This document shows, one piece after another, positions 3,091 through 63,204 of a stretch of 64,000 nt of DNA; position 1 is the stretch's first letter; each line of letters starts with the position of its first letter. The stretch comes from a virus (taxonomy: Duplodnaviria > Caudoviricetes), in the IMG/VR virus record IMGVR_UViG_3300033121_000264, positions 32,001-96,000 of that record; one strand, written 5' to 3'. A program made the position numbers and the translations under genes. The notes under the pieces were generated by a model. That model saw nothing but the letters and a program-made list of their open reading frames with translations. It did no database searches and had not been told where the DNA came from.

Positions 3091-3532
3091 TTCAAATCAA
3101 ACGATGTCGGGCTATTTGAATATTGATATTCTACCTGGAGAAAATAAAGTTCAGGGCGATATTGCTAATCTAGATAATCTAGTAGATGATGCTAGTTGTT
3201 ATGAGATTGTAGCTAGAAATATACTTGAATATGTACCACATACAGAAATTCCACAAGTGGTCGGTCATTGGGTTAAGAAACTAAGTCATGGCGGCAAAAT
3301 TACAATTAATACTACTGACCTACGTAGTATCGTAAAAAGTGTAGCTAGAGAAGCCCTAACAATTCAAGAAACGCTAGAACTACTTTTTGGTAAAAACTCA
3401 ACTGTATTCGATGGTAAAAAGAGCGCAATGACAGCTCATACACTCTCGGCTTTATTAGAAGCTAATGGATTAAAAGTCACCAATAAAGCAATTGATTCTT
3501 ATGAAATCTCTATTACTGCGGAGCGTCAATAA
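3068..3532 (+). CDS. SAM-dependent methyltransferase-like protein (degenerate type 11)
   Basis: GYLNIDI...GDI..LD...EI.A..ILE....W.KKL..GG pattern of short methyltransferases found in glycosylation clusters. Confidence 0.6.
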   Translation: MKINLLRNSNQTMSGYLNIDILPGENKVQGDIANLDNLVDDASCYEIVARNILEYVPHTEIPQVVGHWVKKLSHGGKITINTTDLRSIVKSVAREALTIQETLELLFGKNSTVFDGKKSAMTAHTLSALLEANGLKVTNKAIDSYEISITAERQ

Positions 3533-9145: not shown

Positions 9146-10116
9146 TGAAAATATGTGTTTTAGGTGGACTAGGATATATTGGTAGTGGATTTGGTTCATG
9201 GCTACATTTAAAGGGTTATGACGATATTACGATTGTAGATAATCTTTATTTTAAACAAGCCGAAATTATAGAACCAATTTTAAAGGCTACTAAAACTAGA
9301 TTAGACTACATGCCGGATTTGAAAGAACAAAAAATTACCATCTATAAAGAAGATGTCAGAGAACACCGTAGATGGAATGATTATGACGTTATTATTAATT
9401 TAGCAGCATATGTAGGTGCTCCATTATGCAATAAACTTCCAAAAGAAGAAGTTATCTCGCTAAATCAGACATTTGTTGAAAATCTTACAAAACACTTGTC
9501 AAGAGAGCAATTATTAATTTATCCCAACACAAATTCATCATATGGATATTCAACAGAAGATATATGCACAGAAGATAGCCCAAGACAACCTTTATCGTTA
9601 TATGCAGAAACTAAAGACAATGCTGAAAAAGCTGTGTTGGATTTTGGGGGCATAGCTTATAGATTAGCAACAGTATGCGGTCCTGCTCCAAGAATGAGAT
9701 GGGATTTAATGGTAAATGATTTTTGTCTCAAGGCTTATCGTAATCATCAATTAGATATTTTTGAACCACATTATAAACGCAATTTCATCAATGTAATGGA
9801 TATCCATACAGCTTTAGAATTTGCTATTGCGAATCGTGAAGAAATGCAAGGTCAAGTCTATAATCTAGGATTAGATAGTGGTAATACAACCAAAGGCGAA
9901 TTAGCACAACAAATTTGCAAACATTTTGGAGCAGAATATATAGTATCAGAAGGTAATGACCCAGATAAGAGAAATTATAACGTATCAAGTCAAAAACTAT
10001 ATAATTTAGGATATCAACCTATTCATACTCTAGCAGCTACTATTACGATGTTAGATATTATGTTTATTATTATGAAGGGTAAAGAAATTGATGGTCCTAC
10101 CACAAGGAATGTTTAA
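9145..10116 (+). CDS. NAD-dependent epimerase/dehydratase (extended SDR)
   Basis: VLGGLGYIG, LAAYVG, YAETK, RLATV.G..PRMR.DL.VN. Confidence 0.9.
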   Translation: MKICVLGGLGYIGSGFGSWLHLKGYDDITIVDNLYFKQAEIIEPILKATKTRLDYMPDLKEQKITIYKEDVREHRRWNDYDVIINLAAYVGAPLCNKLPKEEVISLNQTFVENLTKHLSREQLLIYPNTNSSYGYSTEDICTEDSPRQPLSLYAETKDNAEKAVLDFGGIAYRLATVCGPAPRMRWDLMVNDFCLKAYRNHQLDIFEPHYKRNFINVMDIHTALEFAIANREEMQGQVYNLGLDSGNTTKGELAQQICKHFGAEYIVSEGNDPDKRNYNVSSQKLYNLGYQPIHTLAATITMLDIMFIIMKGKEIDGPTTRNV

Positions 10117-11096
10117 TGGATAAATGGCTAATTACAAAAACCCCAAATAGAATTAGTTTTTTTGGTGGTGGAACAGATTATCCAGAATTTTATAATGATA
10201 ATCCATCATTTGTAGTTAGTTCTGCAATTGACAAGTTTTCATATTTAATGATACGTAAATTACCAAAATTTTTTGACTATAAAAGCCGTTTTGTTTATTC
10301 AGAGACAGAAGAAGTAAAATCACACGAAGAAATTAAGCATCGAATTATTAACAAGGTATTAGAGGTTTTAAAGATTAATCATGGACTTGAAATCATTCAC
10401 ACATCGACTTTACCGGGAAACAGTGGTGTTGGTAGCAGCAGTAGCTTTACCGTTGGGCTTTTTAATGCAATTTCTAGCATTGAAGGTGTCCAAACTACTT
10501 CAAAAGGTTTGGCCGAAGCAGCAATCCTTTTAGAAAGAGATGTCCTTAAAGATGTTATTGGAATACAAGATGCGTATGCGGCAGCATATGGTGGTTTCAA
10601 TAAAATCTCATTTAGCCGACATGGAATACATGTAAATCCAATTATATGTAGTAATTCATTTATTACAGAACTTGAGGAATCATGTATATTATTGTACACT
10701 GGAATGAAGCGTGTCTCATCTAATGTAGCCACAGATTGCTTCGTTTTAAGAAATCCAGTAGAAGAACGATTAGCAACTAGACAAATAGCAGAAGAAGGAT
10801 TACAAGCTATTCGTAATGAGAGTATTAGTCAGATAGGAAAACTAATAGATAAGTCTTGGGAAGTAAAAAGAAGTCTATCCAAAACAGTATCAAACCCTTT
10901 AATAGATGATATTTATAAAAGGGCTAAATATATTGGATGCCACGGAAAGGTGATTGGAGCAGGGGGCGGCGGGTGTATGCTTTTAATATTTGATAGGACG
11001 TTAAAAAATAAAGTCAAAAACGAGTTTAAAGAGTTCGTAACGATTGATTTCAAACTGCAATTTGAAGGAAGTAAGGTGATGTATGTTGAAAGGTAA
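10116..11096 (+). CDS. hddA: GHMP sugar kinase, HddA-like (heptose-7-phosphate kinase family)
   Basis: RISFFGGGTD, PGNSGVGSSSS, GIQD and GAGGGG motifs. Confidence 0.85.
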   Translation: MDKWLITKTPNRISFFGGGTDYPEFYNDNPSFVVSSAIDKFSYLMIRKLPKFFDYKSRFVYSETEEVKSHEEIKHRIINKVLEVLKINHGLEIIHTSTLPGNSGVGSSSSFTVGLFNAISSIEGVQTTSKGLAEAAILLERDVLKDVIGIQDAYAAAYGGFNKISFSRHGIHVNPIICSNSFITELEESCILLYTGMKRVSSNVATDCFVLRNPVEERLATRQIAEEGLQAIRNESISQIGKLIDKSWEVKRSLSKTVSNPLIDDIYKRAKYIGCHGKVIGAGGGGCMLLIFDRTLKNKVKNEFKEFVTIDFKLQFEGSKVMYVER

Positions 11097-12033
11097 GGTT
11101 TGGGTAACTGGTGGAAACGGATTCTTTGGGCGACACTTAACTAGAGAATTAGAAAATCAAGGGTATTTTGTTTTATCTGCCCATTCATCAAAATTGAATC
11201 TATTAAATTATGAAGATTGTATTCGTTTTGTATATGATTATAAACCAATTTATATCATTCATGCCGCTGGTTATAATGGTGGAATTAAATTTAATTTAGA
11301 AAATCCATTTGATATATATGACCAAAATGTAAGAATGGGTAATAACGTAATAAGAATAGCTAATGAATATAAAGTTAAAAAAGTAGTATCTATTGTAACT
11401 AGTTGCGCTTATGGAGAATATACTTATTCGGGCGATGAAATGAATCCGTTTCAACCAAATGACCTATTAAGACCAGAAGACTTTCTATCTGATAAACCAA
11501 ATCCAACGGTAGAATGTCATGGATATGCCAAACGTCACTTACAACTCCTAAGCAAGTACGCCCATCAGCAATATGGTTTAAACGCTGTCACAGCCTGTAT
11601 AACTACAATGTATGGTCCAGGTGACTCTACGGACCTAAATAGAACTAAAGTAATGATGGCCCTCATTAAACGCTTTGTAGACGCCAAAAAAGAAAAAGCC
11701 GAAAGGGTAACCTGTTGGGGAACTGGAAAGCCACGCCGCCAATTTATTTATGTAAAAGATGCTGCAAAATGCGTTATAAAAGCTTTGGAAGACTATAATA
11801 ATAGTAGTGTCCCAGTCAATATTAGCCCATTGGGAGACATAAGACTTTCACAGCTAGTAAGAGAAATTGCATGGGCTGTAGACTATAAAGGTGAGATAGC
11901 TTGGGACCACACAAAACCTGATGGGCAAATGAAGAAAGAATTGGTTCCACATGAGATGTTTAAAGATTTTGAGTTTACTGGACTTACCCAAGGTATTAAG
12001 GAAACGATAGAATGGTATCAAAGTTTGGGATAA
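11083..12033 (+). CDS. fcl: GDP-L-fucose synthase-like epimerase/reductase
   Basis: VTGGNGFFG, HAAG..GGI..N, SCAY, YAKR, WGTG.PRRQF.YV.D, KPDGQ. Confidence 0.88.
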   Translation: MLKGKVWVTGGNGFFGRHLTRELENQGYFVLSAHSSKLNLLNYEDCIRFVYDYKPIYIIHAAGYNGGIKFNLENPFDIYDQNVRMGNNVIRIANEYKVKKVVSIVTSCAYGEYTYSGDEMNPFQPNDLLRPEDFLSDKPNPTVECHGYAKRHLQLLSKYAHQQYGLNAVTACITTMYGPGDSTDLNRTKVMMALIKRFVDAKKEKAERVTCWGTGKPRRQFIYVKDAAKCVIKALEDYNNSSVPVNISPLGDIRLSQLVREIAWAVDYKGEIAWDHTKPDGQMKKELVPHEMFKDFEFTGLTQGIKETIEWYQSLG

Positions 12034-12488
12034 TTCTTAATAACTATGGACAAAACCAGTTAGCATTCGATACGCTACAAACCGCTAACGAATTCCTTAG
12101 AATGGGCAACAAAGTAGATTTGACCCTATTTTATGAAACCCCAGTACCTTTAAGACAATCTCCATTAACTGCCCTAATGAATCTATATGAAGCATGGAAT
12201 TATGATGGAACAGTTGTAGCTACATCAGTTTCCTCGGCTTTTAAGGTTTTAGGGATGCCAATTCCAAACCAAAGATATTTTTATGTCTATAATCCTGAAT
12301 GGATTCATAATCATACTATCTATGAAGCATACTATAAACTAGCAAAATCCGACATTGAATTTATTGCTAGAACAAAAGAACACGCAGATTTGATTATTAA
12401 CAATTTTAATAAAGTACCGAAATTTATACTAGAACAAATGAATGTGGAGGCATTATGGCAGGCGTTGAACTCCTTCCAACAATCGTAA
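12012..12488 (+). CDS. Hypothetical protein (possible GT N-terminal-like domain)
   Basis: Coupled ORF; VVATS...YFYV pattern. Confidence 0.5.
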   Translation: MVSKFGIILNNYGQNQLAFDTLQTANEFLRMGNKVDLTLFYETPVPLRQSPLTALMNLYEAWNYDGTVVATSVSSAFKVLGMPIPNQRYFYVYNPEWIHNHTIYEAYYKLAKSDIEFIARTKEHADLIINNFNKVPKFILEQMNVEALWQALNSFQQS

Positions 12489-30970: not shown

Positions 30971-32071
30971 TTATCCTCTAACCCTTTCTGAAAACATCTT
31001 ATTCATTTCTGTCATTAATTCCATTCTTACGTCCGGCATATCAGTTTCTTTTACTTCACCCTTTTCCTTTAATGTATCTAATCTTAATTTCTTAGTCATT
31101 TGACCATATGCATCATTAAGAGAATCTACCCGTTTTGCCTTTTCTTCCGGCGCCCTAGTATCATTAGTTAGGTCATTTCCCCAAATATCCTTTTCATTAC
31201 GACAGAAGACATATACTTCCCTGGCATTTTGAATTTTGGAATTATTACCTACCAATTCATTACCTTCCTTTTGTATTTGGTCCTTTTCTCGTTTACGACG
31301 CTGACTTATCATCCAACCATCTAACATATCATCATCATCAATTATACTATCATGTGGACATTCTGATGATTCGTATATATTATCATACATTTTTGACCAA
31401 GAACATAAGTTGCGTTGTTCATCACTATATTCGGATACTGAAAAGCCGAAAAGGTTCTGTGTTTTCCCTAAATTCCAATATGTGCGCCAAGGGTCAGTTC
31501 TAGCTAGTTCCCTATATTGTGTTTCGGTAATACGTTCTTTACTTATCATTCCTAGTAAACTGTCAAACGTTCCATCAGATTCAAAATAAAATAATCCGCC
31601 ATTTTTATATACTGTGCTGGCCAAAATAAACTTACTTTTAACATATGCGGCAAATCCACTACAAGTTAAATAATCAAAGGAGTGCCGTTCTAAAAATAGT
31701 TCTTCTGCCGCTTGTTTCTTTGCTTCTAATTCCTGTCTACATTTAATTCTTTGTTGGGCATTATTGATTGCTGTAAATAAATTGACTTTAACATCTTCTA
31801 TTTCTTTAGGTAAAGCGTCTAATCTATTTTGTTTTTCTGGAGTCCATAATTTATTACGAAGTAAATAAGTTTCTAATTTATCATCATCCATTATCTCATA
31901 AAAAGATGCTCGATTTAATGATTCATTATAAATCTCTGATGCTTCATATTTAATTGCTGGATTAGGACTATTAATTATATATACATCTTTATTTGTAGAT
32001 TGATAATTAACACATCTAACATGCCCAGATAAAATACGATTAACCAGAAGTTCCTTGTGTTCCGGTGTCAT
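30971..32071 (-). CDS. Hypothetical protein (tail region, chaperone-like)
   Basis: Between tail tube and tape measure; ECP.D.IIDDDD.LDGW motif. Confidence 0.55.
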   Translation of the reverse strand: MTPEHKELLVNRILSGHVRCVNYQSTNKDVYIINSPNPAIKYEASEIYNESLNRASFYEIMDDDKLETYLLRNKLWTPEKQNRLDALPKEIEDVKVNLFTAINNAQQRIKCRQELEAKKQAAEELFLERHSFDYLTCSGFAAYVKSKFILASTVYKNGGLFYFESDGTFDSLLGMISKERITETQYRELARTDPWRTYWNLGKTQNLFGFSVSEYSDEQRNLCSWSKMYDNIYESSECPHDSIIDDDDMLDGWMISQRRKREKDQIQKEGNELVGNNSKIQNAREVYVFCRNEKDIWGNDLTNDTRAPEEKAKRVDSLNDAYGQMTKKLRLDTLKEKGEVKETDMPDVRMELMTEMNKMFSERVRG

Positions 32072-52512: not shown

Positions 52513-52689
52513 ATGAACGAACAAATTCAAAAAATGCTGGCCGAGCTACTTGATAGCAACGAACAAATTCTGAAATTGAGTGGGTCGAAAGTATCCCCCT
52601 CTGAAGAGGGGTTGGGAAACATTAACAACCATGCTTGCGATATTTATTTATTCGCAAAAAATCTGGAAAGACTATTGACGCAACAATAA
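52513..52689 (+). CDS. Small hypothetical protein (58 aa, below the ORF-track cutoff)
   Basis: Promoter at 52454, AAGGA RBS, open frame MNEQIQKMLAELL... Confidence 0.55.
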   Translation: MNEQIQKMLAELLDSNEQILKLSGSKVSPSEEGLGNINNHACDIYLFAKNLERLLTQQ

Positions 52690-52738
52690 GCGGCCGATAT
52701 AATTAGTAGAGTAACGAACAACGTAAAGGAATAGAAAA

Positions 52739-52954
52739 ATGCTGTACGACAACGAAGAACAATACAACGACGCCCGCGAATACTACGAAGGTAACGATTA
52801 CGACAATTGGGAAAACGAGCAAGTTTTCCAAGATAACGAGGGCGAGGAAGACTGGGGGGGCGAGGAAGATTCGTATGACCCCGGGGAATACGAGGCCAGC
52901 GACGAGGACGATGTTTACGGATGGGACGAGGACGATGGAAGGTGGGACGAATAG
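52739..52954 (+). CDS. Extremely acidic small protein (candidate DNA mimic)
   Basis: 31 of 71 residues are D/E, only 2 basic; own promoter and RBS. Confidence 0.65.
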   Translation: MLYDNEEQYNDAREYYEGNDYDNWENEQVFQDNEGEEDWGGEEDSYDPGEYEASDEDDVYGWDEDDGRWDE

Positions 52955-52963
52955 GTAAAATAC

Positions 52964-53097
52964 GAGGATGGGACGGTCTGGCACCGTGCTAGTTTAGGGG
53001 AAATGTGCAAGCTACACAAAGTACCCAAAACTTACTAGCTGGATACTAGTTAAGCTAGGAAAATAGGATAAAGTGGGTTCGACCCCCACCATTCTCA
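52964..53097 (+). ncRNA. tRNA-like RNA with expanded anticodon arm
   Basis: Acceptor GAGGATG/CATTCTC, D-arm ACGGT-CTGGC-ACCGT, T-arm GTGGG-TTCGACC-CCCAC; terminator hairpin at ~53114-53145. Confidence 0.65.
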
Positions 53098-53184
53098 GCA
53101 AATAAGTAGAATAGGTAGTCTGGGAAAACCTGGGTTGCCCATTTTATTTATATTAACAGTGAGAATGAGTCTCAATCTCGTCGT

Positions 53185-61980: not shown

Positions 61981-62057
61981 GCTGGCATGGCTCGACTGAG
62001 AAAGGCACCGCACTTGTAATGCGGATTATGTGGGCGCGAATCCTACTGTCAGCCCCA
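61981..62057 (+). tRNA. tRNA-Thr (UGU), non-canonical T-loop
   Basis: GCTGGCA/TGTCAGC, CCGCA-CTTGTAA-TGCGG, GTGGG-CGCGAAT-CCTAC, encoded CCA. Confidence 0.85.
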
Positions 62058-63109: not shown

Positions 63110-63183
63110 TACGGTGGGGAGCCGCTGGTGGCTCGGAATAGCTGTTAACTATTTTGCCATTGGTTCGATTCCAATTGCCGTAG
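63110..63183 (+). tRNA. tRNA-Asn (GUU) with 6-bp D-stem
   Basis: TACGGTG/TGCCGTA, GAGCCG-CTGG-TGGCTC, AATAG-CTGTTAA-CTATT, ATTGG-TTCGATT-CCAAT; own promoter. Confidence 0.8.
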
Positions 63184-63204
63184 CTAGTTTAGATAGGACA
63201 ACGT

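Follow-up and report, generated by a model that had tools for sequence, protein, structure and literature searches.

The tRNA cluster of bacteriophage T4 gives rise to two stable RNAs, RNAC (species 1 RNA, 139 nt) and RNAD, whose role is unknown (PMC3014915, PMC9697503), and tRNAs of the Lak megaphages carry short introns that have been called 'enigmatic' (Devoto et al. 2019, PMC6784885). When a phage tRNA gene seems 'too long', it is mostly discarded as an artefact or annotated as containing an intron. The 3' end of MALAT1 carries mascRNA, a tRNA-like processing signal located directly after a long RNA.

An overlong tRNA-like gene of 134 nt from an uncultured aquatic phage is described here. 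The window, i.e., the whole stretch of DNA that was analysed, comprises 64,000 nucleotides (positions 32,001 to 96,000) of the IMG/VR record IMGVR_UViG_3300033121_000264, and the gene, hereafter X, occupies 52964–53097 on the (+) strand, position p of X being window position 52963+p. The preferred reading, with a rough probability of 0.55, is that X is a non-decoding tRNA-like RNA, a tRNA mimic. A literature search found no published description of its family, which does not in itself prove that there is none.

The Early Locus and Its Relatives

The source record (104,685 bp, estimated to be ~68% complete) encodes a terminase, a structural protein of 2,486 aa, and a block of small early-type genes, and its closest relatives are short aquatic metagenome contigs with a terminase identity of ~50–55%. 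X lies in a compact unit composed of the following features.

52675..52703, (+): putative sigma-70-like promoter TTGACG-17-TATAAT, 5' of the acidic ORF (consensus scan, 11/12 matches)
52739..52954, (+): acidic ORF of 71 aa (ORF list), directly preceding X
52964..53097, (+): X, whole gene of 134 nt (ARAGORN -i, covariance model R1 at 131.7 bits, and fold)
53114..53149, (+): terminator-like hairpin and T run (scan), closing the promoter–ORF–RNA unit

X starts only 9 nt downstream of the acidic ORF, and both are probably co-transcribed from the early promoter. Neither Pfam nor PHROG has a family that matches the ORF, which is one of a large, unnamed group of small, acidic proteins from aquatic phages (240 hits with E<=0.01, P0001–P0120 among them) that share the invariant core EGSDxDNWExEQVFQDHEG. 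This ORF was the route to the homologues of X, direct DNA searches having failed. With the region or X as the query, BLAST against 50,697 phage records returned T-arm matches only, and three exact or gapped sequence patterns had no match in IMG/VR. Moreover, exact-protein look-ups of two window ORFs returned no record, the capsid protein and a 139-aa downstream ORF had no relatives in IMG/VR, and a single-query search with P0003 matched only itself. Neither nhmmer nor ARAGORN detected an X-like element in 154 loci reached via the HNH gene (48), the terminase (26), and a sigma-like gene (80), and the 80 metagenome loci of the sigma-like gene contained no tRNA whatsoever.

Homologues of the acidic ORF were found in three contigs of related uncultured phages, labelled L156, L157, and L158, two of them with 90% and 82% identity and the third, via a profile search, with 46% identity overall; across the loci, the conserved ORF measures 71–76 aa. 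In all four loci, including the window, a tRNA-like element starts 9–10 nt past the stop codon of this ORF. The three elements of the relatives are as follows.

L156, 297–470: tRNA-like element of 174 nt
L158, 3235–3385: tRNA-like element of 151 nt, reported by ARAGORN -i as 'Leu(UAG) with a 60-nt intron'
L157, 788–863: 76-nt cloverleaf that encodes CCA and has the loop CGGUUUA; its D and T loops are atypical

The order of promoter, ORF, and RNA is the same in the window and in L158, where a putative promoter (TTGACA-16-TAAAAT) occupies the equivalent relative position. The similarity of the window to its relatives ends at 52959 (L157) or 52977 (L156) and restarts at 53128, so that the terminator region is conserved (53128–53318 matches L156 604–794). 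Since similarity breaks at the edges of the RNA and resumes at the terminator, the RNA slot seems to be an exchangeable module, or recombination cassette, within a conserved frame. The early regions of the three relatives are mosaic.

Directly 3' of the tRNA-like element and ahead of the terminator, L156 (469–560) and L158 (3385–3475) contain a second structured RNA of ~90–100 nt, with 83% mutual identity. It has a closing stem of 6 bp (CUUACA/UGUAAG) and three hairpins, which form a cloverleaf-like four-way junction without tRNA loops that is conserved between both contigs. The window lacks this second RNA, and neither IMG/VR nor the phage records contain a match to it.

The tRNA-Like Body

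Within X, the following parts can be distinguished.

52964..52970, (+): 5' strand of the acceptor stem, pairing with 53090–53096 (GAGGATG/CATTCTC, 7 bp including one G.U)
52971..52972, (+): linker G8 G9, non-canonical (tRNAs have U8); GG is found in X, L156, and L158
52973..52987, (+): D arm ACGG-TCTGGCA-CCGT, with U14, G18, and G19 present
52988..53072, (+): middle domain, 85 nt in place of the anticodon arm and variable loop
52991..53032, (+): hairpin 1 of the minimum-energy fold, with the apical part UGUG-CAAGCUA-CACA
53035..53058, (+): hairpin 2 of the minimum-energy fold, CUAGCU...AGCUAG, with alternative registers that include ACTAG-CTGGATA-CTAGT
53046..53052, (+): heptamer CUAGUUA (family consensus CUAGUYA)
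53059..53072, (+): A-rich unpaired stretch 5' of the T arm, A-rich in all three long RNAs
53073..53089, (+): T arm GTGGG-TTCGACC-CCCAC
53090..53097, (+): 3' strand of the acceptor stem and discriminator A; CCA is not encoded

The sequence-only reading had noticed clean acceptor, D, and T arms in a gene that is yet 134 nt long, and both the sequence and ARAGORN with introns allowed bear this out, the program delimiting X at exactly 52964–53097. The identity that it assigns is a different one, namely tRNA-Pro(AGG), the insert measuring 44 nt and the variable region 23 nt, and not the Asn with a 53-nt insert that had been proposed. At the default threshold of ARAGORN -i, X and the L158 element are both accepted as intron-bearing tRNAs, and the L157 element is called only at a lowered threshold. 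Default ARAGORN misses X, and the Rfam tRNA model RF00005 (gathering threshold 29 bits) does not match it even at E<=1, nor does it match in L156 or L158; three other tRNAs in the window score 40–67 bits with the same model. No Rfam family of any kind matches at X. The arms and the elbow nucleotides of a canonical tRNA (G18, G19, and U54-U55-C56) are present in X. However, the tertiary pair U8/A14 is replaced by G8 and U14 in X, L156, and L158, and position 26 is not directly followed by a 5-bp anticodon stem with a 7-nt loop and a conserved anticodon. The predicted fold of X is only modestly above shuffles (z −2.2), and that of L158 is no better than shuffles (z −0.8).

Two other tRNA genes of the window also evade one of the finders. 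The tRNA-Asn(GUU) called by ARAGORN at 63110–63184 has a normal loop (CUGUUAA), carries G8 G9 replacing U8 R9, as in the family of X, and is not reported by the Rfam tRNA model even at E<=1. The resemblance of its linker and D loop to those of X, which had been pointed out before, holds, the same GG at 8–9 and CTGG being found there. The tRNA-Thr(UGU) at 61981–62057, with an encoded CCA, scores 40 bits with the Rfam model and is missed by default ARAGORN.

The arms of the three long RNAs (X, L156, and L158) covary. Their automatic alignment has 97.9% of the cells paired, with 9 of the 16 pairs changed on both sides, and once the D arm of L156 is placed correctly, every cell (48/48) holds a standard pair. 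None of 500 shuffles was as good, and sliding the partner by 1–3 columns left 49–56% of the cells paired. The acceptor stem retains 7/7 pairs in all three RNAs, four of the seven changed on both sides, and the T arm retains 5/5, with four such changes and a loop that starts with UUCGA throughout; in the D arm, the pair 10–25 reads A-U, G-C, and C-G, and every D loop starts with U and contains GG. Thus, as far as these sequences allow it to be judged, the covariation shows the acceptor stem, D arm, and T arm to be under selection for pairing, with the limited statistical weight of a comparative set of three long members and one short one, all from metagenome assemblies. None of the three long RNAs encodes CCA, and their discriminators are A, U, and U. 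Moreover, all three have in common G8, G9, U14, and the A-rich stretch 5' of the T arm, and these shared oddities indicate one family rather than different tRNAs.

The covariance model R1, built from the three long RNAs, scores 118–154 bits on them and detects no additional member when run on the window, the complete record, and 20 loci, and BLAST of the L156 and L158 elements found nothing. The one weak hit of R1 falls in an ordinary tRNA cluster of L002 (IMGVR_UViG_3300044712_000815), an unrelated 159-kb phage contig with at least 15 tRNA genes at 9777–12094. This cluster includes class I tRNAs of 85–89 nt (Val UAC, Thr UGU, Gly UCC, and Pro UGG), the surplus length of Val(UAC) being a long A-rich unpaired variable region. 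Another contig, L019 (IMGVR_UViG_3300033066_002300), has a tRNA-like gene at ~3175–3258 with the loop CUGAUAA (GAU, Ile) and a long stem-forming variable arm, GUACGAAAGUAC, which is unusual for a tRNA-Ile.

The Middle Domain and the Anticodon

The middle domains differ in length (85 nt in X, 121 in L156, and 101 in L158) and in fold, and several folds lie within 2–5 kcal/mol of each other, which makes the structure model ambiguous. Aligned against shuffles, the middles of X and L158 show weak homology (z 3.4), and the other two pairs give z 1.9 and 0.8. Since the middles of X and L158 can be aligned, the 'insert' seems to be an inherited part of the RNA and no recent insertion. For these two RNAs alone, RNAalifold keeps two small hairpins with 7-nt loops and a few compensatory changes; the apical 4-bp stem and 7-nt loop of hairpin 1 are kept in L158 with two compensatory changes in the two-sequence alignment.

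The heptamer CUAGUYA occurs in all three middles (X 83–89, L156 116–122, and L158 92–98), in each case within or adjacent to a hairpin loop; the closing stem differs between the three RNAs and measures 6 bp in X and L156 and 5 bp in L158. In the form CUAGUCA, the heptamer can be placed on a hairpin of the size of an anticodon arm, where it makes up the 7-nt loop (L158) or lies within a loop of 9 nt (L156), so that a decoding or anticodon-mimic role is conceivable. CTAG is the most enriched tetranucleotide of the middles (8 observed vs 0.99 expected, Poisson P ~1e-5, uncorrected for 256 words), and the genome as a whole has no bias (337 observed vs 337 expected). On this comparative evidence, the middle is an inherited, rapidly changing domain with at least one constrained island and no conserved anticodon.

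Several other origins or contacts of the middle were considered and rejected. It is not a repeat or mobile insert, there being no second copy in the genome, and its antisense pairing with neighbouring early transcripts is no better than that of shuffled sequences. A kissing interaction of the CUAGUYA loop with the loop of a hairpin further upstream (UGACUA/UAGUCA, 6 bp, in L156) is equalled by 35%, 8%, and 9% of shuffles. Moreover, the middles are not tRNA-shaped, since ARAGORN finds nothing in the three of them even at an 80% threshold and they contain no TTCRA motif.

X contains CTAG four times, at positions 26, 72, 83, and 92. This word is self-complementary, and the 5' strand CTAGT can therefore pair with three different downstream pentamers; thus, several registers of an anticodon stem are possible and the edges of an insert are not unique. 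When each stretch of 20–84 nt of the middle was removed and every product was run through ARAGORN, 105 'tRNAs' with 12 different anticodons were obtained, including AGG, UGG, GGA, GUU, UAG, and UAA. Deletions of 44, 53, or 61–62 nt give Pro, Asn, Ser, Leu, and others, with at least three equally clean registers. The deletion of X 33–85 (52996–53048), on which the sequence-only reading had based a tRNA-Asn(GUU) with a 53-nt intron between positions 33 and 34, does produce the arm CTAGT-TT-GTT-AA-GCTAG, and ARAGORN calls it tRNA-Asn(GTT); however, it is one of the 105 deletions. The hairpin ACTAG-CTGGATA-CTAGT that had been seen in the insert is indeed present. After any such deletion, 14–23 nt of unpaired A-rich variable region (14 nt in the case of the 53-nt deletion) persist together with G8 and U14.

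Across the four elements, the ARAGORN calls are Pro AGG (X), Leu UAG (L158), Thr AGU, and Asn GUU. Orthologues with a shared unusual core are unlikely to serve four amino acids, and these anticodon calls are therefore best regarded as artefacts; to judge from the sequences, there is no conserved decoding identity among the four elements.

What X Might Be

The arms are kept, the middle evolves fast, and the same design recurs at the same site in two relatives, all of which makes a tRNA mimic likelier than a tRNA-Asn with a removable intron. Among the readings that had been offered on the sequence alone, that of a mimic fits best, whereas the spliced tRNA-Asn(GUU) is not supported, given an anticodon that varies by homologue, an inherited middle, and the remaining G8 and U14. 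On the best reading, X would be one version of an RNA module located between an early acidic-protein gene and a terminator in a small lineage of aquatic phages.

An unlikely alternative is that X acts purely in cis, as a tRNA-like signal for the processing or stability of the mRNA of the acidic protein, the released RNA having no role of its own. The short spacing of 9–10 nt between the conserved ORF and the element in 4/4 loci would agree with such a signal, as would the confinement of conservation to the parts read by RNase P and RNase Z, and t-elements that define mRNA ends are documented (PMC1920247). However, no tRNA-like element accompanies the ORF in L159, L160, L162, and L163, which harbour more distant members of the family, so that the ORF does not seem to need one. 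Moreover, the intrinsic terminator 17 nt downstream would already protect the 3' end, and a bare processing signal needs no inner domain of 85–121 nt with CUAGUYA.

It is quite improbable that X is a decoding tRNA whose anticodon loop or its immediate surroundings contain a short protein-spliced intron of 44–53 nt, akin to the 'enigmatic' introns of the Lak megaphages. The removal of X 33–85 leaves a textbook Asn loop (UUGUUAA), X and L158 pass ARAGORN -i at its default threshold and each have a reading with the insert between positions 33 and 34, GUU occurs in the loop of the short L157 form, and the phage tRNA-Asn also has G8 G9. In addition, short introns have been published for phage tRNAs (PMC6784885). 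On the other side, each homologue yields a different anticodon, many different deletions of X yield a 'tRNA', and any such deletion leaves behind the 14–23-nt unpaired variable region and G8/U14. There is no clean pair of alleles with and without the insert; the L157 element was rejected as an 'intron-less allele', since its similarity to X is confined to ~9 nt at the 5' end. The middle is inherited and diverging and not a discrete insert, and, not being tRNA-shaped, it offers no handle for excision by RNase P or RNase Z. A group I intron had been discounted from the outset, correctly so, given an insert of 44–53 nt vs the ~200 nt or more needed and no match to Intron_gpI or another Rfam model. 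The search for RtcB or an RNA ligase that the sequence-only reading had suggested came back empty, with no RtcB, Rnl1, Rnl2, or EndA in the 104.7-kb record, which is ~68% complete and comes from an uncultured host (PF01974, PF01139, PF09414, and PF09511 absent; the PF09511/Rnl1 control matched nothing anywhere). The GUU of one reading of X and of the L157 loop, together with the G8 G9 of the tRNA-Asn, hints at an ancestry in tRNA-Asn, which is possible for the family on these sequence grounds.

Just as doubtful is a decoy role, in which X would lure an anticodon nuclease or a different reader of the anticodon loop, with CUAGUYA as a bait loop displayed on a tRNA body. Known anticodon nucleases attack the classes to which the tRNAs of the phage belong (Lys UUU, Glu UUC, Asn GUU, and Thr UGU), and the conserved CUAGUYA lies within or next to a hairpin loop; in L158, it forms a 7-nt loop C-U-AGU-C-A on a 5-bp stem. 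However, the heptamer of X lies outside any 7-nt loop on a 5-bp stem, the hairpin is off the position and spacing of a real anticodon arm, and loop position 37 is a pyrimidine. Moreover, the uncultured host has no known defence system or target, and conservation rests on the acceptor, D, and T parts rather than on a canonical anticodon arm.

Finally, there is little chance that X is a functionless, decaying tRNA pseudogene with junk insertions, as the lack of a match to the Rfam tRNA model, the non-canonical G8 and U14, a highly variable middle, and homologues in one narrow lineage only might suggest, since all arm cells pair, with nine doubly changed pairs, although the middles have diverged almost beyond alignment, the elbow nucleotides are retained, and the place in the promoter–ORF–terminator unit is conserved; the stem covariation thus contradicts the decayed pseudo-tRNA that had been named as the refuting outcome.

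Proposed Maturation and Significance

If X is a tRNA mimic, it would be transcribed together with the acidic ORF from the early promoter, and RNase P would release it 9 nt past the stop codon by a cut at 52963/52964, as suggested by the acceptor/T-arm stack and elbow, which are what RNase P recognises. The 3' end would then be trimmed and CCA probably added by a host enzyme, and the mature X, of ~134 nt, would persist stably. No CCA-adding enzyme was found in the 104.7-kb record. The conserved top half of X could bind some tRNA-binding factor, and the inner domain would be a lineage-specific module. The conserved part is what tRNA-end enzymes read, namely the acceptor/T-arm stack and the D-loop/T-loop elbow (GG, UUCGA), and this favours a partner that reads the acceptor end over a reader of a canonical anticodon loop. 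Thus, the favoured candidates are a processing enzyme, a synthetase, an elongation factor, or a toxin directed at the acceptor end.

A more far-reaching proposal, to be taken as speculative and rather unlikely, is that of an undescribed class of phage RNA in which a minimal tRNA body serves as a scaffold for processing and stability of a fast-evolving domain that displays CUAGUYA; encoded in an exchangeable early locus beside a small acidic protein, it would act in trans on a host tRNA-directed factor, e.g., a tRNA-targeting defence nuclease or toxin. If true, this class would parallel, in nature, the engineered 'tRNA scaffold' with which recombinant RNAs are expressed.

X is a concrete candidate for a phage tRNA mimic, and the covariation indicates that an element of this kind can be a selected RNA that keeps the upper, enzyme-facing half of a tRNA and has its decoding half replaced by a variable module. 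Moreover, the anticodon and intron calls of tRNA finders on such genes seem to be unreliable, four homologues having received four 'identities'.

Comparison with Known Systems

X resembles the tRNA-like domain of tmRNA in that the acceptor stem and T arm are kept and other RNA replaces the anticodon arm. However, X has a full D arm, and neither pseudoknots nor a tag frame are evident; a tmRNA was rejected, with ARAGORN -m negative, no Rfam match, and no G3.U70 (the pair 3–70 is G-C in all three long RNAs). As with the t-elements of plant mitochondria (PMC1920247), where RNase P and RNase Z would set the ends, a tRNA-like fold follows right after a coding RNA. In contrast, t-elements and mascRNA are smaller and lack an expanded inner domain, and the cleavage of X would be a prediction from its fold.

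Class II tRNAs (Leu, Ser, and Tyr) also have a cloverleaf with an extra part between the anticodon and T arms and keep G18, G19, and T54–C56, whereas the middles of the X family measure 85–121 nt vs ~30–38 nt, carry G8/U14 vs U8/A14, and have no conserved 7-nt anticodon loop. The Lak cases share with X an overlong tRNA-like gene that is called only with introns allowed and an insert too short for a group I intron. However, inserts of that kind are located in tRNAs of defined identity, are nearly identical between genomes, and can be tRNA-shaped, one or more of them may themselves encode a tRNA, and they occur in alleles with and without the insert, whereas the middle of X diverges fast, has no conserved anticodon, is not tRNA-shaped, and has no pair of alleles with and without it.

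The nearest described look-alike, in architecture only and as far as the predicted folds allow the comparison, is T4 RNAC. Both are phage RNAs of ~135–140 nt with paired ends, a T arm just before the 3' strand, and long hairpins in the middle; T4 rnaC (L166:1909–2047, (−) strand) has a closing stem, two long hairpins, and the T arm CCGGG-UUCGAAU-CCCGG, its fold scoring z −4.6 vs shuffles. However, R1 matches rnaC over the T arm only (14.2 bits), and RNAC, unlike X, has no GG-bearing D arm in its predicted fold and an imperfect closing stem. Moreover, the T4 RNAs come from a tRNA cluster and are regarded as late, in contrast to X, which belongs to an early-type unit behind a protein gene. X may represent a second example of the T4 RNAC type, in a lineage where comparison can guide mutagenesis.
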